A stretch of 64,000 nt of DNA from Candidatus Melainabacteria bacterium (GTDB lineage Bacteria > Cyanobacteriota > Vampirovibrionia > 2-02-FULL-35-15). This document shows positions 7,721 to 31,350 of the stretch, piece after piece (within the stretch, counting starts at the first letter, position 1; the number at the start of each line of letters is the position of its first letter). Below the pieces are notes generated by a model, which saw only the letters and a list, made by a program, of their open reading frames with translations, had not been told where the DNA came from and ran no database searches. Position numbers and translations under genes: made by a program. The stretch covers positions 69,184-133,183 of the forward strand of contig JACQBQ010000010.1 of assembly GCA_016201905.1 (NCBI GenBank), read 5' to 3'.

Positions 7721-8170
7721 GTGATGTTACACATGATTGCTAAATTTTTACTTGTCCTTTTATTTATTTCTTCCAACAATCATTGCTATGCAAATCAAGA
7801 TTACCAAGCAATTGTTTTAGGAAAAATAATAAAAAAAGAAGTTAAAGTTGTAAACAACACTTATTTAACTGAGTATAAGTTAAAAACAAAAAAATGGTTT
7901 TTCAAAAAAGATGCAATTAAAAAAACAAAGTTTATAACAATAAAGGTACTTGGTGCTGATTTGCCAGAAAAGGGAATTGTAATTAAAGCATCAACAACAC
8001 CAGACTATATACCAGTTGGTAAAGAAGCAATTTTTTTTCTTGAGCAAAACAAATTGAGACAACCAAATATTTTTACCCTATCCAAAAACGGTGTTATTTA
8101 CAATGACAGTTCATTCAAATTAAAACCAAGTGAAATTGAACATTTATACCAAGAAATAGAGGAGCTTTAA
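7721..8170 (+). CDS. Hypothetical secreted protein (signal peptide)
   Basis: 149 aa with an N-terminal hydrophobic signal and no recognisable domain. Confidence 0.35.
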   Translation: MMLHMIAKFLLVLLFISSNNHCYANQDYQAIVLGKIIKKEVKVVNNTYLTEYKLKTKKWFFKKDAIKKTKFITIKVLGADLPEKGIVIKASTTPDYIPVGKEAIFFLEQNKLRQPNIFTLSKNGVIYNDSSFKLKPSEIEHLYQEIEEL

Positions 8171-8171
8171 A

Positions 8172-9896
8172 ATGAAATTTAGATTTTTCCTACTAGTAAT
8201 ATTTTATGCAATGGTTGTTGTTTGTCTTTTATGCTTAACACCAACAAACTCTTATGCATTCACAAGAATTGTTGATCTTGTATTTGATGGAATGTCTGTA
8301 GAACCAGATAAGTTACAAGAAGTCCTTTCTACTATTAAGAAAAATAAAATCAAAAACAAAAAGATAAAAAATTTAAAAAAGCTTAAACCGGATAAATTAT
8401 TTGTCATTACTGCCAAGCGAAGTAATCCAAAAAATATTCAACTTGAAATTGATACATCAGAAGTGGTTGTTAAAAGCAATAGTGATATTCAAGCACCAAT
8501 ATCAAATCAGGGATTTCTTGATGCTGTGTCAGAAGCTATCTCTTTATGGGGGAATGTTAATATTGCGGATATTTCATTTGCACCACTGAAGTTTGCTTCT
8601 GGTCAAGCTGATCCAAATGACGGAAGAAACATTATTACATTTAGAGGAATAAAAGCACCAGAAGGCGTAGCAGCTGGAAGCAATGTAGTAACCATAGTTA
8701 ATTATGCAAGAACAGACACTGTACAATTCATGAACAAGCTTATTATGGTAAAGCCAGGCACAATATTAGATGCTGACATTGTTTACGATCCAACAAATGA
8801 TCCCTGTTTAGCTCTTGAAACCACTACAGGTGATTTCAAAATTGGTGGAGAGAATGTCAGTGCTGCAGAAGGTGGTGTAGATCCTCAAGCAGATCTTTCA
8901 AGCTGCCAAGCTGTTTCTGGAGGAGATATAACTGATATTGCAGTACAGGGTATTGCCAGTGTGCTAGGACTGGAATCCTCAGCAATTGTAAGTGCTGCAA
9001 ATACACATGTTGCACAAATTATGGAAAGATATGCCCTGACTAATGACGATAAAATTAGTGTTGCAAACCTTTATCCAGCTATAGAGAATTTAAAAGATAG
9101 AGGCACAATAAAAGGAAAAGTTCTGCTAAATAAAAAACCCGTAAGAGGTGCTCATGTAGTTCTTGAAGACACGATGACTGGTGAGCCTGTTACTAGTGCA
9201 GTAACAACCATTTCTGGAAACTTCATAATTAAAGCAATTCCTGCAGGCACATATACAGCATATGCAGAGCCATTAGATGGACCAATCAGGAAAAATGCTC
9301 TCATGTTAAACTTTTTTACCTTTACTCCTGATTTAAATTTTACAACCGGTGTTAATCCAACACCAGTTACAATATCATCCCAAAAAACAACAAGTTTAAA
9401 TATAGAAGTCAAAGAACTTTCTGCATCAGCATTTAATATTAATGTTCAAACCAGCGCCCTAAATGAAACAGACATAAATGCTGCAGGAGGTGCAGCTCTA
9501 GCACCTATAAGAATAATGCCTGGTGAAACACTAACAAATGTTCAATTCTGGGGAGATAATATAAGCACTGACTTTGGAACACTTTCTATTAGCGGACCTG
9601 GCGTGACTTTAAGCAATATTAAGAATGCAAGTATTCCTGTTTCACCATTTGTAAGGTGCAGCAACTGCGAAGATACTCCGACTACTATGTGTAAAAGAGA
9701 TTCACGCTGTCCAGATACCCAGGAAATTACAGCTGAACCAGATCAAATACCAGGGCTTACAGCTGATATAACTTGTGATCCGGCAACAGCACCTGGTCCA
9801 AGAAACATAATTTTTACTGGCGATCAAGTAGACATGACCCACCCTAGCTTTGGACTAAGAGATCAAATTACCGGTGGACTGGTTATTACAGAGTAA
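8172..9896 (+). CDS. Large secreted protein with a carboxypeptidase-regulatory-like beta-sandwich and a Cys-rich C-terminus
   Basis: 574 aa with a signal peptide. The segment GKVLLNKKPVRGAHVVLED...GNFIIKAIPAGTYTAYAEP resembles CarboxypepD_reg. Confidence 0.4.
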   Translation: MKFRFFLLVIFYAMVVVCLLCLTPTNSYAFTRIVDLVFDGMSVEPDKLQEVLSTIKKNKIKNKKIKNLKKLKPDKLFVITAKRSNPKNIQLEIDTSEVVVKSNSDIQAPISNQGFLDAVSEAISLWGNVNIADISFAPLKFASGQADPNDGRNIITFRGIKAPEGVAAGSNVVTIVNYARTDTVQFMNKLIMVKPGTILDADIVYDPTNDPCLALETTTGDFKIGGENVSAAEGGVDPQADLSSCQAVSGGDITDIAVQGIASVLGLESSAIVSAANTHVAQIMERYALTNDDKISVANLYPAIENLKDRGTIKGKVLLNKKPVRGAHVVLEDTMTGEPVTSAVTTISGNFIIKAIPAGTYTAYAEPLDGPIRKNALMLNFFTFTPDLNFTTGVNPTPVTISSQKTTSLNIEVKELSASAFNINVQTSALNETDINAAGGAALAPIRIMPGETLTNVQFWGDNISTDFGTLSISGPGVTLSNIKNASIPVSPFVRCSNCEDTPTTMCKRDSRCPDTQEITAEPDQIPGLTADITCDPATAPGPRNIIFTGDQVDMTHPSFGLRDQITGGLVITE

Positions 9897-9907
9897 ATAA
9901 AATGCTT

Positions 9908-10225
9908 TTACTTCAAAGCTACACCTAAAAGTTTTTGCAGTTCACCACTTTGATAAAGTTCTCTCGTAATATCACAACCACCAATAAATTTTCCATTAAT
10001 AAAAACCTGTGGAATTGTAGGCCAATTACTATATTTTTTTATACCTTCACGCAGTTCATTGTCAGACAGCACATCTCTTGTCTGAAAAGAAACCCCAAGG
10101 CTATTAAAGGCATCAACTACAGCTGCTGAAAAGCCACACTGGGGAGCATCTTTAGTACCCTTCATATAAATAACCACCTTATTAGACTTAACATCTTTAT
10201 CAATTTTAGTTAAAATATCATCCAT
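9908..10225 (-). CDS. grxD: Monothiol glutaredoxin (Grx4 family)
   Basis: 105 aa with a CGFS active site. Confidence 0.85.
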
Positions 10226-10252
10226 TTCAAGTCCTCCTTATTTAAGCATTAA

Positions 10253-10534
10253 TTATATTTCATGACCTAGTTCTCTCTTAAAACCAGGTTTTGCTTTTTG
10301 CCACTGAGCAGGTGAGTAAGTCTTTAAAGTTAATGCATGGATTTCATTTGTTTTTATTTCATTTGCAAGAATATCATAAACAATTTTATGCTGCTCAACT
10401 AAACTTTTTTCTTCAAATTCAGGAGATACCAAAATAACCTGAATATGATCCCCACCTCTTAAATCAATAACTTCCAGATGAGATATTTTAATTCTCTGCT
10501 TTATTTTAGATTCTATGTCCGTTATCGGTATCAT
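10253..10534 (-). CDS. bolA: BolA-family protein
   Basis: 93 aa BolA-like protein adjacent to Grx4 (the classical Grx-BolA pair). Confidence 0.75.
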   Translation of the reverse strand: MIPITDIESKIKQRIKISHLEVIDLRGGDHIQVILVSPEFEEKSLVEQHKIVYDILANEIKTNEIHALTLKTYSPAQWQKAKPGFKRELGHEI

Positions 10535-10547
10535 TTAATTCCTAGCC

Positions 10548-11195
10548 TTACTTTGGCATTCTTTTTCCTATAAATGCCATCAAATTATCATACTGCATAT
10601 ATGGATTTGTAATTTTCTGGTTTGCTAAAGTGTCATGCTCTTTATCTGAGTAATTATGTCCCGGAAATATAATAGTATCATCGCTCATTTTCATTAGCTT
10701 ATTATAAATTGTGTCAAACATTTGTTCTACATCTCCACCAGGAAGATCGCATCTACCACAAGCATTGATAAAGAGAGTATCTCCAGATACCAGGTTATTA
10801 TTTACTAAAAAACACTGAGAGCCAGGTGTATGTCCAGGTGTATGAATAAATTGGATTTCAATATTTCCTAGTTTTAATTTATCTCCAGATTCAGTTTTTT
10901 TTACATTTTCATATCCCCAATTAAACTTAAAATAATCAGCTTCATGCTTATTGATATAAACAGGTATATCCAGAACTTTAAGCAGTCCTTCAACACCATT
11001 TGTATGATCATAATGACCATGAGTAACTAAAGCAGCTCTTATATTCAAATCATTTTTTTTAGCTTCTTCAAGAAGAAAGTTTATATCCCAGGCAGGATCG
11101 ATGAGTGCAACATCATTTGTCTCTTTATCACCAATAAAATAAATAAAATTTTCCATTGGACCAACTTCCATTTGTTTTAAAATTAAGTTTTTCAT
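10548..11195 (-). CDS. MBL-fold metallo-hydrolase (glyoxalase II-like)
   Basis: 215 aa with the HGHYDH metal-binding motif. Confidence 0.7.
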   Translation of the reverse strand: MKNLILKQMEVGPMENFIYFIGDKETNDVALIDPAWDINFLLEEAKKNDLNIRAALVTHGHYDHTNGVEGLLKVLDIPVYINKHEADYFKFNWGYENVKKTESGDKLKLGNIEIQFIHTPGHTPGSQCFLVNNNLVSGDTLFINACGRCDLPGGDVEQMFDTIYNKLMKMSDDTIIFPGHNYSDKEHDTLANQKITNPYMQYDNLMAFIGKRMPK

Positions 11196-11398
11196 CTTTA
11201 TTAACAGAAATCTAAAGTTCTTTTATTTGGATTGGTACATTCTTCAATTCACATCTTACAACTATTTTCCCATTTTCAACATTGAGCTCTCCTTTTAAGA
11301 ATTACTTGCCGAAAGAAAGGTTTAGACAGCAACATTCTTAAAGAAAGTGCTACTCCAGAGCTTTATCATTAATATGCCTAAATTTTTATTCCTGTTCC

Positions 11399-13174
11399 TT
11401 ATGTCAGACATAGTTTGTGGAATCTTCCGCTTTCTTTCGAATTAAGCCTGTTCCAGTTTCCTGATTCAATTATTTGCCCAGCTTCAATCACATAAATAAT
11501 ATCTGATTTTTGTACTGTTGATAATCTGTGAGTAATATGCAAAATTGTCATTGTTCCATGTAGCTCATTAATAGCATTCTGTATTCGTCTTTCATTCTCA
11601 ACATCAAGATGATTGGTTGCTTCATCTAAAACTAAAAGTGCTGGTCTACGTAATAGTGCACGTGCAAGAGCTAATCTTTGTCTTTCACCACTTGAAAGTA
11701 GAGCACCACGATCACCAATTACTGTATTAAGACCGTTCCGTAGTTTTGAAACAAAGTCATATGCCTGTGCTAACTTAAGAGCATTTTTAATTTCTTCTTC
11801 ACTTGCACCAGGACATGCCCAAAGAAGATTTGTGCGTATTGTGTCATGAAAAAGAAAAGTGTCCTGAGACACATAACCAATTTGATCTCGCCATGATTTC
11901 ATGAACTCTGAAACAAGAGGAAGATCATCAATAATAATTGATCCTTTTTGAGGAATAAGTAAACCAATTACAAGATCTGCTATTGTACTTTTTCCACTTC
12001 CAGAAGAGCCAACTATGCTAGTAGTCTCACCAAATTTTATTGTTAAATTAAGATTTAAAAATATTTTTTGTTCAGTATGTAAATCATAACCAAAGGAAAC
12101 ATCTTTCAATACTATTGAATTCTTGAAAATAATTTGTTTATTAGACTGTGCTATCAGTTTTGAGTTCTGCTCACAGAGTGAGATTAATTGAGTAACATTT
12201 TTAAATGCTGGTAACATAGCTAATATTTCATGGTAATTTTCTTGAATTGATAAAAATCTTGGAACAATACGTGTAAACAAGTAAAACAATAAGAGCATAT
12301 TGCTGGCAGGAGCATTAAGAACCTGAAAGGAAATAAAAACAAATATACTTAAAACTATTACAGTTCCTATTTCAAACATACATTTTATGCCAACTTGGTT
12401 CTTTATATGTTTAATATTTATGCCTGAAACTTTCTTGGCAGTCTCAGCAAAAATTGACAAATTGTGCTCTTCTGCATTATAACTTTTTGTAGTTTTAATG
12501 CTGCTGAAATGCTCTATACAGGCTGCATACAAGCCACTACTTTCAATCGAAAGCTCTTCTCCTGTCAAGCATGTATTTAACAACTTCTTTTTCTGGAGAA
12601 ATAAGAGTAATAATCCACCGGCAAAAGCAATCGTTGTCATAAGCAAAGAAAATTGAACAGATAGAATTAAATATACAAAAACAACAAATAAGCCAACTAC
12701 AAGCTGTAAAAGATGAACAGTACCTGAACCAACCCTCTCAATTTCCGTTGTCAGAGCATGAGTAAAATCTGATGCTTTACACCTTGAAGAGAAAAGCCAA
12801 TTTGAATTTAAAATTGCCTTATATAATTTTTGTCTTAAGTTAAGCACATAATCATGTTCTATGGAAAAACTTACTAGAGACTGATATTGATTAGTCAGGG
12901 CATGCAGAGTTATAACCATTACATAAATTCCAAGTACTGAAATCAAGTTAAAGTCAACACCTGAAGATCTAATGAAATCTATAATAAAACCAGTAACCCT
13001 ATCTGATGATGCTTCTTTAGGTCCTATACCAATAAGCTGTAGAATTGGCAGAAGAAGCATGAGCCCTACACCTTCAGTAAAACTCAGAAATACCATGAGT
13101 AATAATGCCAGAGCAATTTTTTTGTTCGCTGTTTTAAGAAGGCTTACTATATAATCAAAAAAAACTTTTTGCAT
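11399..13174 (-). CDS. ABC exporter (fused permease and ATPase); candidate RiPP/lasso peptide exporter (D protein)
   Basis: N-terminal 6-TM domain and a C-terminal NBD (GSSGSGKST, LSSGERQRLALARAL, LLVLDEAT). The ATG at 13174 is preferred over the TTG at 13198. Confidence 0.8.
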   Translation of the reverse strand: MQKVFFDYIVSLLKTANKKIALALLLMVFLSFTEGVGLMLLLPILQLIGIGPKEASSDRVTGFIIDFIRSSGVDFNLISVLGIYVMVITLHALTNQYQSLVSFSIEHDYVLNLRQKLYKAILNSNWLFSSRCKASDFTHALTTEIERVGSGTVHLLQLVVGLFVVFVYLILSVQFSLLMTTIAFAGGLLLLFLQKKKLLNTCLTGEELSIESSGLYAACIEHFSSIKTTKSYNAEEHNLSIFAETAKKVSGINIKHIKNQVGIKCMFEIGTVIVLSIFVFISFQVLNAPASNMLLLFYLFTRIVPRFLSIQENYHEILAMLPAFKNVTQLISLCEQNSKLIAQSNKQIIFKNSIVLKDVSFGYDLHTEQKIFLNLNLTIKFGETTSIVGSSGSGKSTIADLVIGLLIPQKGSIIIDDLPLVSEFMKSWRDQIGYVSQDTFLFHDTIRTNLLWACPGASEEEIKNALKLAQAYDFVSKLRNGLNTVIGDRGALLSSGERQRLALARALLRRPALLVLDEATNHLDVENERRIQNAINELHGTMTILHITHRLSTVQKSDIIYVIEAGQIIESGNWNRLNSKESGRFHKLCLT

Positions 13175-13188
13175 AATATAAAATTTCC

Positions 13189-14931
13189 CTAAGTACAAAC
13201 GGGGACTTGTTCTTTAGTTTCGTCTTGTTTTGAGCTAGGTTTCTTATTCTCACCAATTTTCCATAATCTTAACGTATGCACAAAGCCAGCATCATCAGAA
13301 AATAATTTAACTTTATCTGGAGACCAGTTCTGAACTTCACAACAGTGAGCCACGACCCTTGTTCCACTCTTTAGTTCCTTTAAAAGTTTATTTTTAAATA
13401 TAACAGGCTGGACATCTGATAAATAAAATATAACCACTGTTGCATCTGACAAATCAACTTCCATAGCGTCTTTTTGTACGAACTCAATAAGCTCGCTAAC
13501 TCCTTCTTTTTTTGCATTTACTCTTGCTTTGTCTAACAACTTAGAGTCTATATCTATGCCTACACCTCTTGCTCCAAACCTTTTTGCTGCTTCTACCAGT
13601 ATTCTTCCATCGCCACATCCTATATCGTAAATCACATCATTTGAATCAACCTGCCCAACTTCAAGTATATTTTTAATAATCTCATGCGGAGTAGCAACAA
13701 ATTCTGAAAGCTTGCTTCCACCAAATTTTCTAAAAAAGTACTTCCCAATAAGTCTAATTGGTCTAAAGAAATAATACAAAACTGATAAATCCTTTGGAAA
13801 TGTAACAGCCATTAAGTCATTCAGCGAAGGATAAAACATAAAGCAGAACAAATAGCGTAATTTTTGAAAAAGTGAGTCTCTTATCCATATCTGAAAGTCT
13901 CCAATATTATCAAACAAAGATGCACTAACTTTTCCATAAAAAATTCTGTTTTTTATTAATTCACCAAGGTGTTTAATATCCTTATCTGAATTAATAATTT
14001 TTAGTATATTATTCGGTAATTTAGCTTGCAGAAAATTATTTGCAAGATAAAGACCGAGAAGGAGCATTCTTTTACATTTAAGTTTCTTTGCTTTAGTTAA
14101 AAGCAAATCCCAATCCAGATTTTTTTTCGTGTCTATAATTTGAGCTATGTCACAAATAAGAGAGAAACTCTCCCATGCATCCTTTGCACCATTTAAGCAA
14201 AGCACAAGAAGTAGGTCTTCAAGATCAAGCACTGGCAATGGCTTATCAAAAATTGTTGTTTTTTCATAGTGCCACGACAAATTATCAAGTGTAGTCCCAA
14301 GTAAAAAATAAGAAGCCGTAATTCCCCAATGGATTTCCAGGTGTATACCATCCTCATTATCAAGCTCATAAGAATAGTCATACTTTAAGTAAGCATCTTC
14401 AGTATCTGGGTGTAATTTATGAAAAGGCGTGTATCCTTCTTGGATAAGTATCTCTTTCACTTTCAAAGCATCTCTCTCTAGGACAAGCAAATCAATATCT
14501 CCATACTCTCTTAAACCAAGGTTGTTATATAGAATTAAAGCTAAAATAGGACCCTTATAGGGCATTACAAAGATCTTGTTTTGCTCCAGCAGATTTAAAA
14601 CTTTAATTAATTCTTTAGTCAAGTACAGATTACTTTTAGTAGCTGCGCGAAAATGATTCTTTAATAATTCCATTACATTAAATGGAAGTAGCTCGACAGG
14701 AAGTGAATTAAGGTTCCTATATAACAAGGGAAACAATTTATGTGTTCTGGCAGTATTTATAATATAATCCCAGTCAAGGCTTTCATTTAAGAGATCTCTT
14801 AGTTTACTAATCATATTTGTATTTAAATTAGTTCTTGCACAAGACGTTATAAGTTCTATTTCAAGATTATAATTTTTCATAAAATCAATTTTTAAATTAA
14901 TTGCAGATAAGTTGCCTTTCCGCCTTATCAA
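13189..14931 (-). CDS. Fusion of a PF14907-like 'uncharacterised nucleotidyltransferase' and a class I SAM-dependent methyltransferase
   Basis: The N-terminal half has YKGPILALILY...GDIDLLV, typical of the nucleotidyltransferases found in kinase-type lasso clusters. The C-terminal ~170 aa has VIYDIGCGDGRILVEAAKRFGARGVGIDID (SAM motif I). The start may instead be the internal Met at 14880. Confidence 0.6.
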   Translation of the reverse strand: MIRRKGNLSAINLKIDFMKNYNLEIELITSCARTNLNTNMISKLRDLLNESLDWDYIINTARTHKLFPLLYRNLNSLPVELLPFNVMELLKNHFRAATKSNLYLTKELIKVLNLLEQNKIFVMPYKGPILALILYNNLGLREYGDIDLLVLERDALKVKEILIQEGYTPFHKLHPDTEDAYLKYDYSYELDNEDGIHLEIHWGITASYFLLGTTLDNLSWHYEKTTIFDKPLPVLDLEDLLLVLCLNGAKDAWESFSLICDIAQIIDTKKNLDWDLLLTKAKKLKCKRMLLLGLYLANNFLQAKLPNNILKIINSDKDIKHLGELIKNRIFYGKVSASLFDNIGDFQIWIRDSLFQKLRYLFCFMFYPSLNDLMAVTFPKDLSVLYYFFRPIRLIGKYFFRKFGGSKLSEFVATPHEIIKNILEVGQVDSNDVIYDIGCGDGRILVEAAKRFGARGVGIDIDSKLLDKARVNAKKEGVSELIEFVQKDAMEVDLSDATVVIFYLSDVQPVIFKNKLLKELKSGTRVVAHCCEVQNWSPDKVKLFSDDAGFVHTLRLWKIGENKKPSSKQDETKEQVPVCT

Positions 14932-15850
14932 TTTGCATGTCAGATAGTATTGCCAAACTTAGTTTTCCTGGCTCCAAAATGCTTGCCTCATAAGTTATTT
15001 TTTTTGTAACAGCAAACTCTGTGGTTTTATTAAGAATAGAAAATTGCCTTTTTAACATTTCAGGATTATAGAGATCTAATCGAAAAGAAGACTGTAACAA
15101 TTCAACAAGACTTTCTTGGGCTGACAATGGTTCAATTGAAACTTCTTTTACATTCTCAGATGGGTTTAAAAAGTAAATGTGAGAGAGCCTATACTCACCT
15201 GTAGAATATTGTCTTTGGGAAAGAGTTATCCTGCACTTTTCCGTCGGATCATCAATCTCAGCATCTGGATTTAAAAACTTTAATACTTCAGGCCAAAGCC
15301 CGACGTGTGGGGTACCACTACTTGTCCACACTTCATTATTTTTTAAAAAGATGGGGACTACATTGTCTGACAGTAAAGCTAATCCCTCTTTTATCAAGCC
15401 AGCTGTTATTGTAGATTTACCAAAACCACTTTTGCCAATAAATACAAGGACACCTTTTTTGCTTAGGACACTACTTGCATGAAGAGCCTCAATACCACTT
15501 AGATTTAAAGCTTTTGGAAGTACTTGTGTAAATAAAATATGCTTTACTGCTTCTGACTCATAATCATCAAAACACTTGTAATAAATGTACTTACTGTCAG
15601 GTGAAATTGCAAAATCTACTTTTTCATCAATAAAGTGAAGAACAAAGTAATCATTGTTTTTTTTTCCTGCTCTTAGACAGACATGACCATCTATCATGTG
15701 CCAGTCATGATACCAAAGTACATTGTCTGTAATATTTTCATGTTTTTTATCCCAGGGCAACACTCTTATATCAGGCTCTTTGAAGGTCTTCTCAAGCCCA
15801 GAAGCAATTTCCTCTTCCAGATCTATTGATAGCCCATAAACACTATACAT
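14897..15850 (-). CDS. HPr kinase/phosphorylase-like serine kinase (RiPP/lasso-associated HprK homolog)
   Basis: 317 aa with a P-loop GKSGFGKST resembling the HprK C-terminal domain. It sits immediately downstream of the candidate precursor. Confidence 0.6.
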   Translation of the reverse strand: MYSVYGLSIDLEEEIASGLEKTFKEPDIRVLPWDKKHENITDNVLWYHDWHMIDGHVCLRAGKKNNDYFVLHFIDEKVDFAISPDSKYIYYKCFDDYESEAVKHILFTQVLPKALNLSGIEALHASSVLSKKGVLVFIGKSGFGKSTITAGLIKEGLALLSDNVVPIFLKNNEVWTSSGTPHVGLWPEVLKFLNPDAEIDDPTEKCRITLSQRQYSTGEYRLSHIYFLNPSENVKEVSIEPLSAQESLVELLQSSFRLDLYNPEMLKRQFSILNKTTEFAVTKKITYEASILEPGKLSLAILSDMQIDKAERQLICN

Positions 15851-15861: not shown

Positions 15862-16017
15862 TTAAGCGCTTCTTCTGGTAGTTTCTTTTCCCCTACTCCT
15901 TGTACCTTGAGTTAATTTTGCTATAGTTCCATACTTAATTAATACTGGTGTATTATATGGTTTTTTTTGGCCCTTGTTTAAGCTGGTATCTAAATTAGAT
16001 TTTGACTTGTTTTCCAT
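15862..16017 (-). CDS. Candidate lasso-peptide precursor (51 aa; not in the ORF track)
   Basis: Translation gives MENKSKSNLDTSLNKGQKKPYNTPVLIKYGTIAKLTQ|GTRSRGKETTRRSA. The leader matches YxxPxLx3Gx5Tx exactly. The core starts with Gly and has Glu at position 8. The ORF overlaps the 3' end of the cyclase gene by 23 nt in another frame. Confidence 0.5.
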   Translation of the reverse strand: MENKSKSNLDTSLNKGQKKPYNTPVLIKYGTIAKLTQGTRSRGKETTRRSA

Positions 16018-17962
16018 ATTTTTCAGTCCCCCTATGACTTATTATTCTACCAAAATTATTTCTTGCCCAATATTCAAGGCTAATAATCTGCCACATAATG
16101 TCGCTCCACGTAGAATCATCCAGGTTATTTGCATATTTTTGACAATATTGCTCATATGAATCTAAAACTTTTCCTTTATCTATTAACCCTATCTGATGTA
16201 AATATGAATCATTTAACAGTTCTTTCACTTCATTATGATTTTCATAAATAAGCAATTTATTAATTAATGAAGTAAAGTCAGCTTTATCCATTCTGTTTTT
16301 TATTTCAACTGGTAATAATTGTTTCATTGACTCTCTTAAAAAACCTTTTGGTTTCCATCCATACACAAGCATTTCTTCTGGTACACTTGACACAAACTCA
16401 ATTATTCTTCTATCACATAACGGGTGCCTAAGTTCAACTGTATTTGAACTGGCAGCCAATCTATCTAACAGCTCAAATCCACTGACTCTATAACCATTAA
16501 ATAATGAACTGTATGTTTCCTTGCGGCTTATTGTCTTAAATTTTTTGTTTTTAAGATACCAGGGTTCTTCTCTTAGCCTTTGAAAAAGATTTTCTCTGTG
16601 AGGCTGGTTAATCCAGTCATATGTTTTTATCGGACGAATAGTCCTATAAAGTTTTTTAAACCACCTTGGTAGCATTGAACGAAGTGAATTAAGCGACATT
16701 GACAAAACAAGTTTCAGCACAAGTGGATAAGAAGCTAGTTGATATTGTGAGTATGCATCAATAAATGCTAATCCTTGAGCAAATTTTCCTGTAAACAAAA
16801 GATCTGTTGCAAGATACATTGATGCATCAATGTAGTCATCTCCCCCTTCACCAGTAAAAATCACTTTTCTTCCTTCATTTTTTGCCAGGTCATAAACAGG
16901 TTTAGTTAGAATTATCCCTTCAACACTCCATAGTGCCTGACTTGCGTGTATAGCATCAGGTACTTCCCAGAGAGGTTTTGGTGCATGCGAATTAATCCGA
17001 TTTGATTTAATCTTATATTTTTTTTGTACTATATTTATAAAATCACTTTCATCAGCAGGTTTTGTATCAAAGACTGCAGAATACCCGGATGTTTCTACAT
17101 TGGTTTTCTTTTTTGATTTTAAATCATCAATTAATGCAAGTACCGAAGAAGAATCCAGCCCACCACTAAGTGTTATTCCAGGTTCACTATTTAATCTGAG
17201 CTTGGAAATCATTGATTTGGTAAAAACTTCCATAAAAGCTTCAGTATAATCTTCAATTTTTTTAAACTCATTTGTATAATTCAGATTGATATCCCAGTAT
17301 TGTCTAATTTTAAAGTCATCTTTTTTTACTGTCATGCAATGAGCTGGTCTAAGTTTGAAAATATTTTTAAATTCTGTTCTTTCTGAATTTTCAAAGTTGT
17401 TGGTTAAATAAAGTGCCATAGAATCTAAATCTGGCTCCTTTGGTATATCAGGATGTTTAAATAAAGGAATAGCGTCAGATGCAAATGCCAAAAACCTTTC
17501 ACACTTATAAAAGTAAAATGGCCTTACCCCTATAATATCTCTTGCACAAAAGAGCTGATTGTTTTTACTATCCCATATTGCAAAGGCAAAGTCACCTATT
17601 ATTTTTTTAAGACAGGCTTCTTTCCAGAGGAAATAAGAGTAAAGAACAATTGAAGCATCAGTTATAAGCTCTGCTTTTATTCCACATGACTTTAATTCTG
17701 AGCTCAGTTCATTTCTATTATCGATTCTTCCATCCATAACAAGTGTCAATCCTGTGTTTTTATCATGAAATGGTTGTCTTTCTATTTCTTGTTCAGTTGT
17801 AGTCCAGAAGGCTCTATGCGCCAGTCCAACAACCCCATTAACCCAAACATCTCTTGCATTCTGACCTCTATCTGAAAGGATTTTATCGTCTATAACTTTG
17901 TTAAGGACATTTATATCAAACTGTTCTCTGTCAAAATAAAAGATTCCTGTTATTGCACTCAT
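15995..17962 (-). CDS. Asparagine-synthetase-like protein; candidate lasso cyclase (C protein)
   Basis: 655 aa with the PP-loop SGGLDSS. The N-terminus is MSAITGI rather than the AsnB MCGI glutaminase nucleophile, as expected for an isopeptide-forming cyclase rather than a true AsnB. Confidence 0.7.
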   Translation of the reverse strand: MSAITGIFYFDREQFDINVLNKVIDDKILSDRGQNARDVWVNGVVGLAHRAFWTTTEQEIERQPFHDKNTGLTLVMDGRIDNRNELSSELKSCGIKAELITDASIVLYSYFLWKEACLKKIIGDFAFAIWDSKNNQLFCARDIIGVRPFYFYKCERFLAFASDAIPLFKHPDIPKEPDLDSMALYLTNNFENSERTEFKNIFKLRPAHCMTVKKDDFKIRQYWDINLNYTNEFKKIEDYTEAFMEVFTKSMISKLRLNSEPGITLSGGLDSSSVLALIDDLKSKKKTNVETSGYSAVFDTKPADESDFINIVQKKYKIKSNRINSHAPKPLWEVPDAIHASQALWSVEGIILTKPVYDLAKNEGRKVIFTGEGGDDYIDASMYLATDLLFTGKFAQGLAFIDAYSQYQLASYPLVLKLVLSMSLNSLRSMLPRWFKKLYRTIRPIKTYDWINQPHRENLFQRLREEPWYLKNKKFKTISRKETYSSLFNGYRVSGFELLDRLAASSNTVELRHPLCDRRIIEFVSSVPEEMLVYGWKPKGFLRESMKQLLPVEIKNRMDKADFTSLINKLLIYENHNEVKELLNDSYLHQIGLIDKGKVLDSYEQYCQKYANNLDDSTWSDIMWQIISLEYWARNNFGRIISHRGTEKYGKQVKI

Positions 17963-18912
17963 TGCTTTTCCAACTTTACCAAGCCTATATTGATTTGCTC
18001 ATTTAAGAAAGAAAGTATATCACCCTCACACTCTTCTTTTTTTATATCATATTCATTTAAGAGCATTTGGGTTATTTCTTTGATTTTAATTGTTTTTTTA
18101 GCTTGATTTAAAATATTTATTCCGATCTGGTCTGTTGCATAGCAAGATGAATCTTTAAAATTATAAATTAAAATCTGATTGCCCAGAGATCGCATGAAGT
18201 AGTCTCCAGTTGTTTTTATCAAAGAGTCCTGCGATAAATGAAAATGTTTATTTAATTTTCTTAAGCTAGTATTTATTTTTTTTCTGTGAATTGGCTTGTA
18301 AAGAGGTCTTGCTCTAAACCAGCCAGTTAAAACAGTTCTTGTAACTTTGCCGTATACCTTGTTTACTCTGTGCTCTAAATAAGGCGCTACTCTAAAAATC
18401 ACAGCATCACCAAAACCATTATTAATAACTTCTTTGACCAATTCTTTTGTTCTTGAATTACGAATTTGAATGGCTCCACCTATGTAAAAATCTGTACTTA
18501 GATTAATACTGATTGATATCATTCTGTTATTTGTTAAGTCGTCATGCCATTTGTCATATTGTTCTTTGTCCGGGATTTTACTGTAAACCCTGCCAGTAAA
18601 ACATCCGATTTTTTTACAGCCTGTGATTTGTTCTATAAACTTAAATAACTTTTCATCATTCATCAAGAAGTGAAGAAAGCCTAATATTTTTTCATCTTCA
18701 AATTTATAACCAACTGCTTCATCATCTCCAACTTTATATTTATCTTCCAAGAACTTCTCTTTCCTTAAGCAGTTCTGAATTAAGGACAGGAGATTAGGCT
18801 CTAAAAATCTTTTTAACTTTAAGCAATGATTTTCACTAAACTCACTTCGCAGTATTTCAAAATCAGACTCTATTTCTGAGATTAAAATACCTGATTTTGT
18901 TAATTTAACCAT
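17959..18912 (-). CDS. Prolyl-4-hydroxylase-like 2OG/Fe(II) oxygenase fused to a C-terminal PqqD-like RRE domain (paralog 1 of 5)
   Basis: WHDD...GGAIQI...FGDAVIFR...EHRV...GKVTRTVLTGWF fits the HxD...H...R 2OG-FeII_Oxy_3 pattern. The C-terminal ~85 aa (..NILNQAKKTIKIKEITQMLLNEYDIKKEECEGDILSFLNEQINIGLVK) is PqqD-like. Confidence 0.6.
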   Translation of the reverse strand: MVKLTKSGILISEIESDFEILRSEFSENHCLKLKRFLEPNLLSLIQNCLRKEKFLEDKYKVGDDEAVGYKFEDEKILGFLHFLMNDEKLFKFIEQITGCKKIGCFTGRVYSKIPDKEQYDKWHDDLTNNRMISISINLSTDFYIGGAIQIRNSRTKELVKEVINNGFGDAVIFRVAPYLEHRVNKVYGKVTRTVLTGWFRARPLYKPIHRKKINTSLRKLNKHFHLSQDSLIKTTGDYFMRSLGNQILIYNFKDSSCYATDQIGINILNQAKKTIKIKEITQMLLNEYDIKKEECEGDILSFLNEQINIGLVKLEKQ

Positions 18913-18923
18913 TTTAAATTGTT

Positions 18924-19892
18924 TTATCTCGTCATTTCAGTGCATACAAGCCTATTTATCTTCATTTGTCTTATTAGATTTCTTAAATCTATTTCACATT
19001 CTTTTCCACCTACATCATATTCTTTTAAAATTAAATTTCTTATTTCAAAAAACGATTTTGGTCTGTCAAGTATTTTAAGGATTTTTCCACCAATCGAGTC
19101 CAATCCAAAACATACTCCAGTCACAGGATTAAATACAAGCACTTTATCTTTTGAATCTTGAAAGAATAAGTTCTGACTTCTCGACAATACTATATCAGTA
19201 TTATATTTTTTAGCTTCGCTCAGATTCCTATCAAATGTAATACTTCTTGAACAGTCTTCAAAAACAGGTTTGTAGATTGGTTTTGATCTAAACCATCCCG
19301 CAAAAAATGTTCTGCTTGCTTTTCCAGTTACCTCAGTAAGTCTATGTACTAACTTTGGAGATATTCTAAAAATAACTGCATCACCAAAACCAGTATTTGC
19401 AACCTCCTTTACGACTTTTCCTATGTTTATATCTTTGAGCTGAAGAATTCCTCCTTCATAAGCTTTAGTACTTAGATTTATACTCATTGCAATCATCCTA
19501 TTATCGACCAAGTCATTGTGCCAAGCATCTCTATGACCAGTGCCTGGGCTCATACGGCAAATCCTGCCTGTAAAAGAACCAATCTTACAGCAACCTGTAA
19601 CTTTCTCAATAACCTGAAAGAGTTTTTTGTCATTCACAAAAAACCTAAGCAAGCATTCAAGATTTTTATCTTTTAGCCTGCACATTGGATTGTCCTGATT
19701 GCTTGCAGGATAATTCACAGTAAAAAAATCATCACATTCATCAATTTTTAATTGTATAAGTCCAAGTAAATCCTTCTCAAGGAAATTAGTTAATTTTATA
19801 CAATGCTTTTTATCAAATTCTTTTTTCAAAAGATTAAGATCTTTTTCATTTGCTGTTAAGTTAAAACCTGAACTGGTAATTTGGATATTCAT
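18924..19892 (-). CDS. 2OG/Fe(II) oxygenase-RRE fusion (paralog 2)
   Basis: AWHNDLVDNRM, GGILQL, FGDAVIFRISPKLVHRLTEV and GKASRTFFAGWF, with a C-terminal PqqD-like segment. Confidence 0.6.
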   Translation of the reverse strand: MNIQITSSGFNLTANEKDLNLLKKEFDKKHCIKLTNFLEKDLLGLIQLKIDECDDFFTVNYPASNQDNPMCRLKDKNLECLLRFFVNDKKLFQVIEKVTGCCKIGSFTGRICRMSPGTGHRDAWHNDLVDNRMIAMSINLSTKAYEGGILQLKDINIGKVVKEVANTGFGDAVIFRISPKLVHRLTEVTGKASRTFFAGWFRSKPIYKPVFEDCSRSITFDRNLSEAKKYNTDIVLSRSQNLFFQDSKDKVLVFNPVTGVCFGLDSIGGKILKILDRPKSFFEIRNLILKEYDVGGKECEIDLRNLIRQMKINRLVCTEMTR

Positions 19893-19907
19893 ATCAATAC
19901 TTAAAAA

Positions 19908-20873
19908 TTATTCAATACTTACAAGCCCATTCTCTTCCATCTCTTTAAGAAGATATAACAAATCTTTTTCACATTGCTCAGTTTCTATATCAAATTCTTT
20001 TAAAAGCACATTTTTAACTTCACTGACAGTAAATGGCTTGTCAATGACTTGCAATACTCTTTCTCCAACAGCATTCAAGGCAAAACAGCTAGTACTAAAT
20101 GGATTAAACACATGAAGTCGTTCATTAAAATATTTGGAAAATAAATTCCTGTTCTTTTTTACAGAGGCAGATAACTGTACTTGTGGCAATTTTTCGTAGC
20201 TATTGTCATTTGTGCGATTTTTGGCAACTGGCTTGAACACTGGTTTATAAAAAGGTTCCGAAAAAAACCAGCCTGCATAAGCAGTTCTATGAGCTTTTCC
20301 TTTTACTTCAGTTACTCTATGATCCAGGTAATTTGAAATCCTAAATATTACTGCATCTCCAAAGCCAGTATTCTTGACTTCCTGAATAATTTTGTCCGTA
20401 GTAAAATCCTTAATTTGCAGGCTTCCACCTTCGTACACTTCAGTACTTAGATTCACACTCATTGCAATCATCCTATTGTCCACATTGTCATCATGCCATG
20501 CATCAAGGGTGTCAGCATCCGGGCTTAATCGGTATATTCTCCCGCTAAAGCAGCCTATTTTCTTTGAAGAAGTGATTTTTTCAATAAGCTCAAAAAACTT
20601 TGGATCATTTGTCAAGAATTCCAAGAGTCCTATTGCCTGTTTATCCTTAAGTCTAAGTTCTTTTGAATCAAGACCTATCTTTTTCTTATAACTTTTTGAG
20701 TAAAAGTCTCCAATTTTTATTTTCTCTTGAATTAATCCTAGAATTTCTTCATCAAGTAATTTTGGTAGCTTAACCCAGTGATTTTCACTAAAGTGCTTGA
20801 GCAAATCATCTATGTCTTTTTCTGTATAAGAACATTTTATTCCTTCTCTTTTTAATTGAATTATTGACTGCAT
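19908..20873 (-). CDS. 2OG/Fe(II) oxygenase-RRE fusion (paralog 3)
   Basis: AWHDDNVDNRM, GGSLQI, FGDAVIFRISNYLDHRVTEV and GKAHRTAYAGWF, with a C-terminal PqqD-like segment. Confidence 0.6.
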   Translation of the reverse strand: MQSIIQLKREGIKCSYTEKDIDDLLKHFSENHWVKLPKLLDEEILGLIQEKIKIGDFYSKSYKKKIGLDSKELRLKDKQAIGLLEFLTNDPKFFELIEKITSSKKIGCFSGRIYRLSPDADTLDAWHDDNVDNRMIAMSVNLSTEVYEGGSLQIKDFTTDKIIQEVKNTGFGDAVIFRISNYLDHRVTEVKGKAHRTAYAGWFFSEPFYKPVFKPVAKNRTNDNSYEKLPQVQLSASVKKNRNLFSKYFNERLHVFNPFSTSCFALNAVGERVLQVIDKPFTVSEVKNVLLKEFDIETEQCEKDLLYLLKEMEENGLVSIE

Positions 20874-20888
20874 ATATTTTTGATTTTT

Positions 20889-21824
20889 TTAGTTTTTAAT
20901 TGTAAGTAATTTATTTACCTCCATTTCATTGAACAATGAAATTAAATCCTTTTCAAATATTTCTTCACCAATATCATATTCACTAGTAACTATTTTTTTT
21001 ATCTCGCTAAACATTATTGGTTTTTTAACTATTTCCCAGAGCCTTGTTCCCAGGTTCTCAAGACCAAATCCTGTTTCTTCAACTGGATTAAATATAAAGA
21101 GTTTGTTCTCAATATATTCTTCCATTAACCCTTTCTCTAACATTATGATTGAACCACTTTTAATCTTTGATTTTTTATTATTAACTAATAAGGTTTGATT
21201 ATTATCAAAGGATTTTAAGTCGATATGTGAACTAAGCCAACCTGCAAGTGCAATCTTTGGGATATTTCCTTCGACTTTAGTTAGCATATGTTGATAGTCA
21301 GTTGAAATAGAAAATATAATAGCATCTCCGGGTACTGTATTTTTTATCTCTTGAATTATTTTTTTTGTTTTTTTATCTCTAATTAGCAGTACTCCACCAG
21401 AATATATATCAGAACTCAGATTTATGCTTATGGTAAGTACACGATGCCATACAACATCAGAATGCCACATGTCATAGTGATCTTCACCAGGAATCATTTT
21501 GTAAACTCTTCCGCTAAAATACCTGATTTTTTTTAATCCTGTTATTTGTTCAATTGCTTTTAAAAATTTTTCATCATTAACTATTTCATGAAGTATCTGG
21601 TTCATTTCAGGATCTTTCATGACTAAATCTTTGCCAGCATCCTTGTGATCAAGTGTTATAAAATCAGCTTTATTAATTCTTTCTTGAATATCCTTTAAAA
21701 GGTCAGAAACTATAAGATTTGAAAGTTTAATATGTAAGTTTTTTTTAAATTCTTCTTGAAGTTTCTGAAGTTGAGTAGAACCTTCTGAGACATCGGTACC
21801 ATTTTTTGTAATTTGAATTTTCAT
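20889..21824 (-). CDS. 2OG/Fe(II) oxygenase-RRE fusion (paralog 4, most divergent)
   Basis: MWHSDVVWHRV, GGVLLI, PGDAIIFSISTDYQHMLTKV and a PqqD-like C-terminus. Lys replaces the downstream Arg. Confidence 0.55.
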   Translation of the reverse strand: MKIQITKNGTDVSEGSTQLQKLQEEFKKNLHIKLSNLIVSDLLKDIQERINKADFITLDHKDAGKDLVMKDPEMNQILHEIVNDEKFLKAIEQITGLKKIRYFSGRVYKMIPGEDHYDMWHSDVVWHRVLTISINLSSDIYSGGVLLIRDKKTKKIIQEIKNTVPGDAIIFSISTDYQHMLTKVEGNIPKIALAGWLSSHIDLKSFDNNQTLLVNNKKSKIKSGSIIMLEKGLMEEYIENKLFIFNPVEETGFGLENLGTRLWEIVKKPIMFSEIKKIVTSEYDIGEEIFEKDLISLFNEMEVNKLLTIKN

Positions 21825-22798
21825 AAGACTAAAGCAGCTTTTTTAATTGTTATTAGTTTGTTTTCTTGAAATTCATTAAGAATCGCAAATAAATCTTTTT
21901 TACAACTTTCTCTACTTATCTCGTATGTATTTATGAAGTGATTTTCAATATCTCTAAATGCTTGTGGTTTTTCAAGAAGATTTAATATATCAGCTCCAAC
22001 TTGATTTGTACTGTAACATGCATCATGTTCAAGATTCAAAACCATTGTTTCATTTTCAAAAGCTCTTGCAAAAGTGCTGTCATTTAAAGTAAGTATTGAG
22101 TTGTTATCAACAGAAAAAGTTGATTTTTTTTTCTCTTTACTTTTTTGTTCTATGTTACTTTCAAACTCTGGCTTAAAAGCAGGTTCTGATCGGAACCAGC
22201 CAGGAAAAGCAGTTTTAGCAACAGTTCCTGTTACTTCTGTAACCATATGCTCAAGATTCGGAGCAATTCTAAAAATTACACAGTCACCATATCCAATATT
22301 TGCTATTTCGTGTAATATCTCTTTCGTATTTCTATTTCTTATTTTAAGTATTCCACCGGAATAAATTCCCTTACTCAAGTTTATGCTTATGGATGCAAGT
22401 TGATTTTCACTGATATCCTGATGCCAATTATCATAATGACCTAAATTAGGAACAAGGCTATAAACACCACCGCTAAAGATTCGAATCTTTTCACAACCTG
22501 TTATTTGCTCTACCAGCTCAAATAAAAACGGATCGTTCATTAAAAACTCAAGGAGTGTGTTTACTGTTTCATCATTTAAACGATAATCAACTGCATCTGA
22601 CTCTGCAAGTTTATACTTATCTTCATAGAAACCCACATCATCCATTTTTTCCTGAACAAGCTCTAAAAGTTTGGGCTCTAAAAACTGTGGAAGCACTATA
22701 CAGTGTTGCCTATCGTAGAGTTTTTGCAAAGAAAATAAGTCTTCTTTAGTACCCAAAAACTTTGTACTAGTTTTCGTTGCTTGAATTATTGGTTTCAT
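21821..22798 (-). CDS. 2OG/Fe(II) oxygenase-RRE fusion (paralog 5)
   Basis: NWHQDISENQL, GGILKI, YGDCVIFRIAPNLEHMVTEV and GTVAKTAFPGWF, with a C-terminal PqqD-like segment. Confidence 0.6.
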   Translation of the reverse strand: MKPIIQATKTSTKFLGTKEDLFSLQKLYDRQHCIVLPQFLEPKLLELVQEKMDDVGFYEDKYKLAESDAVDYRLNDETVNTLLEFLMNDPFLFELVEQITGCEKIRIFSGGVYSLVPNLGHYDNWHQDISENQLASISINLSKGIYSGGILKIRNRNTKEILHEIANIGYGDCVIFRIAPNLEHMVTEVTGTVAKTAFPGWFRSEPAFKPEFESNIEQKSKEKKKSTFSVDNNSILTLNDSTFARAFENETMVLNLEHDACYSTNQVGADILNLLEKPQAFRDIENHFINTYEISRESCKKDLFAILNEFQENKLITIKKAALVL

Positions 22799-24315
22799 TG
22801 TTTTATCCTATCCAGACTTTCTAGAAGTTCTGAAAAAATATTTATTACTTCCTCAGGAAAAACCTTAACTGATTCTAGTAATTCACTCAATGCTTGCTTA
22901 ACTTTTTTTTCTTTTAAATAAAGCAGTGCTAGGTGAATATAAATCATAGTACTGTAGTGTCCGCCTGCAATACCTATTTTATAGCTACTGATTGCTTTTG
23001 TAGTAAGATTTTTCTTTGCATAAAGTTTGGCAAGTTTTACATGCACTTCAAAATAATCAGGATCGGTTAAAAAATTTTCCTTGGCTCTGCTTAATATAAA
23101 GGCATTTAAGGATCTGTACCCTTTAAGAGATAATTTTAGTGACTTTTCAAATAAATTTATTGCTTCATTAGTCTTATTTTGCTTTTTTTGTATATCTCCA
23201 AGAGCATGATAAGCATCTGGAAGGTTTTCATTTAATCTTATGGAATTGCAAATAAAGTCCTCTGCCTCTTTCCAGTTTTTCTTTTTCATTGCAATTAGTC
23301 CTAAGATTAAATGTGCATTAGCGTCTTCAGGATCTAGTGAAAGAACTTTATTTACTTCGATTTCTGCCTTGCGGAAAAGCTTATCTTCAAAATATACATA
23401 TGCCAGATTATTGTAAGCAGTCCTATATGAAGGATCTATATTTAGTGCCTGCTTATAATAACTTTGGCTTTCTTGTACTTTGTTCATATTTTGGTTTAAA
23501 AGCGCAAGGTGGAAGCAAGGGACTGGAGAGGCAGGCATAAGATCTTTAGCTTCAATATATTTTGCCTCAGCTAAAAGAAACTTATCATCGTTTGCCAATA
23601 TAGATGCTTCTTTTACCATTTCCATCATTCTTAAGGATGAGCTGTTGCCATTTTTTATTCTAAGAGCAAGTTCATCTCCAAGATATTTCCATTTCAATGG
23701 CGTATATCCACCTTCTACAGAATATGCAATAGTAATAATATCTGAATGTATTTTTTTTAGATTTATCCTATTTAAAAGTTCATTGGGCCAACACCAGGGA
23801 ATCTCAGAATGTTTATCAGTCTTGCCATACGACACGTGTGGAATAATCATATAGTCAACATCAATGTCCAGTAAAACATCTTCAGTAATCTCTGGTATAG
23901 AATCCAAAGTGCATATCCTGAGAGGTTTATTGAGAACAAAAGCAGAAATTTCATCTTTATCTATTTTTATTTTTTTAGAACTTTCAGGATAGCGTCTGAT
24001 TATTCTTTTCAAGTGTTGTAATATAGCTTTCTTATTTTTTTGTGATTCCATGCTCTCATCCGGTACAATCCAAAAGACTTCTTTTAAAATATCTTCTTCA
24101 AGCGCTCTGCATATAAAATTGGCAATTGTAATTTGAGAACCTTTTTTTATAAACCACATATCGTGATGCGCATCGATATGAACCAATCTTCTATTTTTTA
24201 CTCCGGATTCTTTCCACACATAGTATGAACGATCATGATTTTCCATGATATGAACACTAGCACTACGCTGGTTTGCATATTCTGATTTTATTTCTTTTTT
24301 GGAAGCAGTACTCAA
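22795..24315 (-). CDS. Two-domain protein: N-terminal ureohydrolase (arginase/deacetylase)-fold-like domain and C-terminal TPR repeats
   Basis: H27, D48-A-H50-H-D52 (a DAHxD-like motif) and D150-I-D152-V-D154, with arginase-like spacing (about 21 and about 102 residues). The C-terminal ~280 aa are TPR-like (..AYNNLAYVYFEDKLFRKAE..). TTG start with an AAGGAG RBS. Confidence 0.45.
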   Translation of the reverse strand: MSTASKKEIKSEYANQRSASVHIMENHDRSYYVWKESGVKNRRLVHIDAHHDMWFIKKGSQITIANFICRALEEDILKEVFWIVPDESMESQKNKKAILQHLKRIIRRYPESSKKIKIDKDEISAFVLNKPLRICTLDSIPEITEDVLLDIDVDYMIIPHVSYGKTDKHSEIPWCWPNELLNRINLKKIHSDIITIAYSVEGGYTPLKWKYLGDELALRIKNGNSSSLRMMEMVKEASILANDDKFLLAEAKYIEAKDLMPASPVPCFHLALLNQNMNKVQESQSYYKQALNIDPSYRTAYNNLAYVYFEDKLFRKAEIEVNKVLSLDPEDANAHLILGLIAMKKKNWKEAEDFICNSIRLNENLPDAYHALGDIQKKQNKTNEAINLFEKSLKLSLKGYRSLNAFILSRAKENFLTDPDYFEVHVKLAKLYAKKNLTTKAISSYKIGIAGGHYSTMIYIHLALLYLKEKKVKQALSELLESVKVFPEEVINIFSELLESLDRIKQ

Positions 24316-24362: not shown

Positions 24363-24653
24363 TTAGGCATTTTTCACTTCGACTAAGCCTGATTCTTCTA
24401 AATTTTTTACAAGTTCTATTAAATCGCATTCAAGTTGCCTGGCATCTACATCATACAATTCAAGTATGTAACTTTTTACTTCTTTTAATTTCTTAGGTGT
24501 TTGAATTATATTCCATACTTCTGTACCAAGATTATCCAAGCCATAATAAACGCCATCTTTATGATTTAATATAACTGACTCTCCAGATAAATCACAAGAG
24601 AGCTGATTACTGGAAACAGTTAAAATTGAATCTTCAGAAATTATGTTTTGCAT
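24363..24653 (-). CDS. Standalone PqqD-family protein (RiPP recognition element; lasso B1-like)
   Basis: 96 aa: ..ILNHKDGVYYGLDNLGTEVWNIIQTPKKLKEVKSYILELYDVDARQLECDLIELVKNLEESGLV. Confidence 0.7.
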   Translation of the reverse strand: MQNIISEDSILTVSSNQLSCDLSGESVILNHKDGVYYGLDNLGTEVWNIIQTPKKLKEVKSYILELYDVDARQLECDLIELVKNLEESGLVEVKNA

Positions 24654-31349: not shown

Positions 31350-31350
31350 T

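Follow-up and report, generated by a model that had tools for sequence, protein, structure and literature searches.

A probable A gene for a short, arginine-rich lasso peptide in a kinase-type operon of Candidatus Melainabacteria

Between a macrolactam cyclase gene and an HprK-like kinase gene of a Candidatus Melainabacteria bacterium lies a 51-codon open reading frame (ORF), and the locus raises the question whether this small frame encodes the peptide on which the surrounding enzymes act. The stretch analysed, referred to here as the window, comprises 64,000 nucleotides (contig JACQBQ010000010.1 of assembly GCA_016201905.1, positions 69,184 to 133,183 of the forward strand). A first-pass annotation made from the sequence had proposed the ORF as a lasso peptide precursor, and had placed it correctly at 15862-16017, in a frame overlapping the 3' end of the cyclase gene; its strand is minus. 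The analysis indicates that the ORF very probably serves as A gene in a lasso operon of the paeninodin-like, kinase-type kind, and it supports a product whose ring would be closed between Gly1 and Glu8 of the core.

The ORF consists of 51 codons and a stop and translates as MENKSKSNLDTSLNKGQKKPYNTPVLIKYGTIAKLTQGTRSRGKETTRRSA*. Its leader spans residues 1-37 (15907-16017), its core, GTRSRGKETTRRSA, residues 38-51 (15865-15906), and the stop codon occupies 15862-15864, all on the minus strand. The cyclase ORF shares 23 nucleotides of its 3' end with the beginning of the precursor ORF, and an 11-nucleotide gap separates the precursor stop from the HprK-like gene, all three genes being encoded on the minus strand. 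A Shine-Dalgarno-like AGGGGGA (16027-16033, minus strand) is positioned 9 nucleotides upstream of the precursor ATG, within the last codons of the cyclase, an arrangement that fits translational coupling of the precursor. In the counterpart locus L003, AAGGAGGA precedes the GTG start of the precursor.

The leader carries the residues Y21-N-T-P24-V-L26-I-K-Y-G30-T-I-A-K-L-T36-Q37, with Thr at position -2, so that the YxxPxLx3Gx5Tx motif read earlier is borne out by the translation. The NCBIfam model NF033521 (lasso_leader_L3), which has a curated cutoff of 19 bits, supports it with a score of 22.4 (E 8.4e-5), and the cyanobacterial lasso precursor model NF033528 (lasso_cyano) gave 25.8 bits, under its cutoff of 33. 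When the window is translated in all six frames, the motif Y..P.L...G.....T. matches a single time; in simulated 64-kb sequences with the dinucleotide frequencies of the window, 0.017 matches are expected per sequence, and 0.09 for a relaxed form of the motif. The core has the small first residue and the acidic residue within positions 7-9 that are looked for in lasso precursors. Because Glu8 is the sole acidic residue of the core, a ring between Gly1 and Glu8 is the only one possible, in agreement with the 8-membered geometry proposed at first. The computed monoisotopic mass of the otherwise unmodified lasso is 1543.829 Da. A motif and small-ORF search of the window gave no second precursor and no other small gene in the cluster besides B1, and thus no different precursor for the recognition domains of the operon was found there.

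In the public record, NCBI nr has a protein identical to the translation, encoded on a 141-kb contig and named 'MAG: lasso RiPP family leader peptide-containing protein [Candidatus Melainabacteria bacterium]'; the precursor was also predicted by gene callers on two Logan assemblies. The description of the ORF as unannotated therefore has to be dropped. The adjoining cyclase is labelled 'hypothetical protein HY094_01240'. The precursor itself is an ordinary lasso A gene that the NCBI pipeline had already recognised by machine.

The ORF and its motif occur at the same place in the related loci L003, L086, L109, L004, L005 and L112-L115, which answers the demand for conservation made in the first-pass annotation. 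Orthologous small ORFs with Gly1/Glu8 cores follow cyclases that share 40-57% identity with the window cyclase. The cyclase of L003 is 49% identical to that of the window, and the core of its precursor, an ORF missed by the gene caller, is GTRSKGTETTRRAL. The core closest to that of the window, GTRSRGKETRRRIA, is found in L086, where the precursor is flanked by fragments of a cyclase gene and of a kinase gene. L109 (cyclase 40% identical) has the 13-residue core GTSRKTKETTRKA. The cores of L086, L003 and L109 are near-identical to the window core, and those of L004 (40%) and L005 (39%) are GTSLKNGEASRSKL and GTSIKPGDAGNFTAL. On the short contigs L112 and L113, the overlap with the upstream gene and the 11-nucleotide spacer to the next gene are as in the window, and in L114 and L115 the precursor is kept between its flanking genes without overlap. 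An exhaustive HMMER search of 1.84 billion representative proteins returned only seven relatives of the precursor at E <= 1e-3, among them P0174, P0176 and P0179 with the cores GTRSKGVEGVRKQV, GTSRRTREGSRRR and GTGSKGKEAVGRKNE. Gly1 and Glu8 are invariant across the seven cores of the short-core subfamily, in which the hydroxyl residues Thr2, Ser3 or Ser4, and Thr9 are conserved as well. The precursor thus belongs to a rare, small family with Arg/Lys-rich Gly1-Glu8 cores of 13-15 residues. In P0173 and P0175 the lasso leader motif is present twice in tandem in one ORF, for example as MEEEKKPYNTPKLIKHGTIEQITG, then MEEEKKPYQTPILIKHGTIEHITG, followed by a core; either a leader duplication or a fusion of precursor genes may account for them.

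Nucleotide changes were compared over 33 alignable precursor codons. The proportions of replacement (pN) and synonymous (pS) changes are 0.126 and 0.528 between the window and L086, and 0.195 and about 1.0 between the window and L003. The precursor protein is under clear purifying selection, with synonymous sites saturated and replacement sites not.

The genes of the operon were searched for by phmmer in 80 genome loci with a related cyclase, the window proteins serving as queries and the loci being translated in six frames. A kinase was found in 71 of these loci, the transglutaminase-like leader peptidase B2 in 62, B1 in most, and the nucleotidyltransferase (N) and the exporter (D) in many. 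An ORF with the leader motif is present in 66 of 85 fetched cyclase loci, nearly always directly downstream of the cyclase. The order cyclase (C), precursor (A), kinase (K) is the normal one in the cyclase clade of the window, so that the proposed position of an A gene between C and K is confirmed by syntenic relatives. Judged by its gene content, the clade is a kinase-type lasso family, with members in Cyanobacteria, Acidobacteriota, Chloroflexota, Nitrospirota and methanogens.

In the window the operon reads, on the minus strand, B1, an arginase-like enzyme with tetratricopeptide repeats (TPR), five oxygenases fused to a RiPP recognition element (RRE; RiPPs being peptides made on the ribosome and modified after translation), C, A, K, a nucleotidyltransferase-methyltransferase fusion (N-MT) and D, and all 12 of its ORFs are intact. 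The precursor adjoins the cyclase, and the operon holds one discrete and five fused RREs. The discrete PqqD-type RRE, B1, has 96 residues (24363-24653, minus strand) and matches PF05402 with 46.5 bits and NF033536 (lasso_PqqD_Bac) with 60 bits, where the cutoff is 80. The cyclase is an Asn-synthetase-like protein of 655 residues (15995-17962, minus strand) with the Pfam domains Asn_synthase, GATase_7 and GATase_6; it scores 419 bits with NF033535 (lass_lactam_cya), whose cutoff is 525. Neither its SGGxDSS PP-loop nor its Met1-Ser2 varies in the 13 homologues closest to it. The HprK-like kinase of 317 residues (14897-15850, minus strand) gives weak matches to Hpr_kinase_C and TIGR04352 over the P-loop region, with the P-loop GKSGFGKST. 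It is 34% identical over its full length to the gene that follows the precursor in L005, and in L086 and L109 an orthologue of it likewise comes after A.

The N-MT fusion has 580 residues (13189-14931, minus strand) and combines an NTP_transf_5 nucleotidyltransferase (PF14907, residues 51-301, 203 bits) with an S-adenosylmethionine-dependent methyltransferase (Methyltransf_25/31, residues 422-563). The latter reaches 122 bits, under the cutoff, with NF041081, a protein-lysine N-methyltransferase model. The same fusion is present in L109. The ATP-binding cassette (ABC) exporter of 599 residues (11399-13198, minus strand) shows the Pfam domains ABC_membrane and ABC_tran only, without a C39 peptidase domain.

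The presence of a kinase leads to the question of its target. In characterised lasso systems the kinase modifies the linear precursor at a C-terminal Ser (PMC8498205), and the kinase of the linear phosphorylated peptide (LPP) family phosphorylates Ser3 (PMC13381572). The window core ends in RRSA; its Ser is penultimate and not C-terminal as in paeninodin, as was recognised from the start, and RRIA, RRAL and TRKA are the corresponding ends in its closest relatives. A C-terminal Ser is present in only 24 of 77 cores from kinase-bearing loci. The earlier suggestion that Ser13 is the target of the adjacent kinase is unsupported, because the position is variable, with Ser, Ile, Ala or Lys among the four closest relatives, and by this comparison Ser13 appears to be a poor candidate for phosphorylation.

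Five tandem paralogues, each with an N-terminal 2-oxoglutarate (2OG)-Fe(II) oxygenase domain (PF13640) and a C-terminal lasso-type PqqD/RRE domain (PF05402), fill positions 17959-22798 of the minus strand (17959-18912, 18924-19892, 19908-20873, 20889-21824 and 21821-22798). The HxD...H iron triad is invariant in all five, and the best match of the fused RRE in the Protein Data Bank (PDB) is TbiB1, a lasso B1 protein (E 4.5e-6). An AlphaFold2 model of the oxygenase (pLDDT 88.7) has Tpa1, OGFOD1, PHD2 and bacterial prolyl 4-hydroxylase as its nearest folds, with a further resemblance to BesD, HalA and HalD, a group whose substrates are free Lys or Orn. The fold is prolyl-hydroxylase-like but the window core has no proline, and therefore the target residues are not predictable from the fold. 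The fusion of oxygenase and RRE is rare, with about 25 two-domain proteins recovered in a search of 5.8 billion clusters. Within a genome the paralogues are 40-55% identical, which points to an old origin, and at least one orthologous trio (W5, N5, T3) adjoins the cyclase in all three clusters. Both observations fit a distinct role for each oxygenase. A rule by which the number of oxygenases equals the number of basic residues in the core holds for the window (5 and 5) and for L109 (5 and 5) but fails for L003 (3 and 4) and L110 (1 and 6), and was rejected.

Two further features were noted in related clusters. In the first of the three oxygenase-RRE genes of L003 (3719-4751), the oxygenase (3719-4522) and the RRE (4413-4751) lie in different frames, reflecting either a frameshift or an assembly error. 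In L109 a 433-residue membrane protein with a weak PMT_2 match (GT-C glycosyltransferase-like) is encoded at 7798-9099, inside the lasso operon, with the oxygenases on one side and the cyclase on the other; the window operon lacks a counterpart, and a relationship to the membrane proteins encoded elsewhere in the window was considered and discarded, as no similarity was found.

The remaining tailoring enzyme candidate is a protein of 506 residues (22795-24315, minus strand), with a peptide-arginase-like ureohydrolase domain at about residues 1-235 followed by TPR repeats detected by Pfam. The only significant PDB match of the arginase-like domain is 8BRP, the peptide arginase OspR (E 2.2e-7, 34 bits). 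With NF052474, the model of the FlmR/OhkR family, it scores 46.4 bits against a cutoff of 350, over profile positions 68-163 only. The manganese ligands of OspR are His12, Asp39, His41, Asp43, Asp165 and Asp167 (PMC10028609). Residues at these sites are kept in the window enzyme as H27 (in MENH27), D48-A-H50-H-D52 and DIDVD at 150-154, the last of which aligns with the DIDID that supplies the final two ligands in OspR. Homologues of the enzyme are found in eight fetched clusters, and the core contains Arg in seven of them, as compared with 8 of 36 well-flanked clusters that lack the enzyme (Fisher p 0.001, with kinship among the clusters ignored). The exception is L066, which has the homologue and a core without Arg. 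On a set of soil metagenome contigs (L087-L108, for example L098 at 7744-15069), cores of 19-21 residues of the form GTRT..[DE]...CL are accompanied by the order B1-(B2)-C-A, a protein arginine methyltransferase-like gene, K, an unfused 2OG oxygenase and an arginase-like/TPR gene. Because this GTRT...CL soil family carries similar enzymes, the tailoring set recurs around cores that start with GTR.

From these parts a pathway can be outlined. The 37-residue leader would dock on the discrete RRE and, successively, on each of the RREs fused to the five 2OG oxygenases, and the linear precursor would be tailored while still bearing its leader, as characterised lasso kinases and the oxygenase CanE also have the leader-bearing linear precursor as their substrate (PMC8498205). 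Going by domain homology, the oxygenases probably hydroxylate the peptide, ornithine is probably formed from Arg by the arginase-like enzyme, and the kinase and the N-MT fusion could add phosphate, a sugar or a nucleotide, together with methyl groups. Cleavage behind Thr(-2)-Gln(-1), by a protease for which the window has no gene, would then remove the leader. The ATP-dependent cyclase would join the amine of Gly1 to the side chain of Glu8, producing an 8-residue ring and the 6-residue tail TTRRSA, and the ABC pump would export the strongly cationic product. It has been proposed for pseudomycoidin that bulky groups added at the C-terminus help hold the threaded tail (PMC6993621); by analogy, such modifications could likewise hold the tail of the window peptide.

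Several observations weigh against the assignment as a functional lasso operon. One concerns the step that frees Gly1. No B2 (PF13471) was found in the 64 kb by phmmer, by hmmsearch --max (a small hidden Markov model, HMM, run with filters off) or by tblastn with the B2 of L109, three B2 queries being applied, although the same queries recover B2 in the 62 related loci counted above. Pfam and NCBIfam scans of the ORFs of the window gave no other peptidase either, and L109, the most similar complete cluster with the same tailoring set, has B1-B2. Because no recognisable peptidase is present in the window, the release of Gly1 is left without an assigned enzyme. The sequence that could be reached beyond the window contains only Fe-S and pyruvate:ferredoxin oxidoreductase housekeeping genes. 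A 478-residue gene upstream of B1 was considered as the peptidase and rejected, since its GDSL match is sub-threshold and it has two paralogue-like neighbours; it was grouped with an array of membrane protein genes. In L003, too, the arginase-like gene comes straight after B1, without an intervening B2. A gene for the leader peptidase may lie in another part of the genome, may be lost, or may be replaced by one for an unrecognised protein, and in this respect the locus is a natural test of leader removal in a cluster that lacks the canonical peptidase. The kinase reads LLSDNVVP, with DN in place of the DD pair that is kept in 85 of 90 homologues from the fetched loci; the change is common only to the window kinase, its nearest relative in L086 and L110, and the activity of a kinase bearing it may be altered or lost. 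The cyclase, B1 and the arginase-like domain all score under the NCBIfam cutoffs of the named families, and each chemical modification proposed above would follow from domain homology. Finally, published lasso cores range from 13 to 33 residues (PMC13352647), so that a core of 14 residues with the 6-residue tail TTRRSA stands at the short extreme, as the first-pass annotation had remarked, and threading is not assured.

These observations are in part what would be expected if the precursor were genuine and the cluster crippled, with B2 lost, the leader retained on the peptide, no lasso made, and the genes either decaying or serving another role. The absence of B2 from the window, as against its presence in L109 and in most related loci, and the DN pair of the kinase are in keeping with such a loss. 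Decay agrees poorly with the twelve intact operon ORFs, with the preserved HxD...H triads and arginase-like metal ligands, and with purifying selection on the precursor relative to its homologues. Moreover, L003 belongs to a separate lineage and also proceeds from B1 to the arginase-like gene without B2 between, and the peptidase could lie elsewhere on the 141-kb contig or in the genome, so a crippled cluster is considered improbable. A product that is mainly a linear, non-lasso tailored RiPP of the LPP kind would also fit the missing B2: K, N, an RRE and an ABC pump form the LPP core set, the LPP kinase acts on Ser3 (PMC13381572), and the short-core subfamily keeps Thr2 and Ser3/Ser4 and has no C-terminal Ser. 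On the other hand, the gene that directly precedes and overlaps the precursor encodes a full-length cyclase whose PP-loop is intact, the leader has YxxP and not the WxxP of LPPs, no signal-peptidase-like gene is found in the window, and a linear product would not require the Gly1 and Glu8 that are invariant in the seven subfamily cores. A mainly linear product is therefore regarded as very improbable.

That the ORF is a chance frame at the 3' end of the cyclase gene could be suspected from its shortness, its AT-rich composition and its partial overlap with another gene. The overlap covers just 23 of its 156 nucleotides, the HMM match is above the cutoff, and the ORF is kept in at least eight independent contigs despite saturated synonymous change. 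This explanation is effectively refuted by the pN and pS values together with the motif expectation of 0.017 per window, and its probability is close to nil. The lasso A gene assignment could also be carried further, to the first ornithine-bearing and multiply hydroxylated lasso peptide, ultra-short (13-14 residues) and highly cationic, in which each RRE-fused oxygenase would modify one site, the arginase would be tethered through its TPR domain and the leader would be removed without B2. Such an elaborated product is put forward as a speculative proposal that is unlikely to hold in full.

The gene order of the paeninodin cluster is reportedly padeCAKB1B2D. The C-A-K order is common to the paeninodin and pseudomycoidin clusters, the psm cluster having an extra N gene (PMC6993621, PMC8498205). 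Like such clusters, which are known from Bacillota and Proteobacteria, the window has A after C and before an HprK-like K, a discrete RRE B1, an NTP_transf_5 gene, an ABC exporter and a YxxPxL leader with Thr at -2. It differs from them in lacking a C-terminal Ser and B2, in the DN pair of the kinase, in the fusion of N to a methyltransferase, in a core of 14 residues as against 20 or more, in six extra tailoring genes, and in its Melainabacteria host. A 2OG-Fe(II) oxygenase in a lasso cluster has a precedent in CanE of canucin A, which acts on the linear precursor (PMC8498205). CanE is a single gene product that targets a C-terminal Asp and for which no RRE fusion is mentioned, whereas the window encodes five RRE-fused paralogues and a core without Asp. 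The arginase-like enzyme resembles OspR, FlmR and OhkR, which convert Arg to ornithine in proteusins and orphan RiPPs, in that the DxHxD and DxDxD ligands are kept and the enzyme co-occurs with Arg-containing cores. Unlike OspR (309 residues) it has a C-terminal TPR domain of about 270 residues, and an Asn is aligned to Glu11 of OspR. The LPP family, members of which co-localise with lasso clusters, has in common with the window an RRE, a kinase resembling HprK, an NTP-transferase, an MsbA-like pump and a related leader (PMC13381572). LPP loci have a SpI-like peptidase, a WxxP leader and no cyclase of their own; the window has a cyclase, YxxP and no SpI-like gene, and falls outside that family.

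A lasso cluster with an arginase or ornithine, with RRE-fused oxygenases, with an N-MT fusion or in Melainabacteria was not found in the literature searched, which leaves most subscription journals outside it. Ornithine and arginase are both absent from a review of interlocked peptides published in 2026 (PMC13352647), and lasso peptides are not mentioned in two papers on peptide arginases (PMC12703449, PMC10028609). From these comparisons the system appears to be a variant of the kinase-type lasso cluster, distinguished by RRE-fused oxygenases, an arginase-like/TPR enzyme, the N-MT fusion and the lack of B2. If the chemistry proposed for these enzymes is true, ornithine and multi-site hydroxylation would join the known lasso modifications, and the leader-guided enzymes would be useful for peptide engineering. 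The non-photosynthetic Melainabacteria are barely explored for natural products.

The rest of the window was surveyed for genes and repeats, and scans for promoters and terminators gave counts no higher than in shuffled sequence. Downstream of the operon lie housekeeping genes (a metallo-beta-lactamase-fold hydrolase, BolA and Grx). Directly upstream, the stretch 26361-44865 contains genes for eight polytopic membrane proteins that are paralogues of one another and have roughly 420-570 residues (26361-28028, 27994-29661, 29658-31349, 32722-34410, 35522-37198, 37202-38920, 40430-41695 and 43180-44865), none with a Pfam or NCBIfam match. They are interleaved with two paralogous proteins of about 450 residues and three weakly GDSL/SGNH-like proteins. 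A tRNA gene at 47055-47128 on the minus strand (RF00005, 70 bits) is the sole Rfam match in the window. An intergenic repeat is present at 38954 (plus strand) and, on the minus strand, at 41815-41960, about 49278 and 56361-56506; it has hairpin-like segments and matches no Rfam family at the gathering score. Two copies of about 145 nucleotides differ at 2 positions, and a 34-nucleotide core occurs four times, always between genes.

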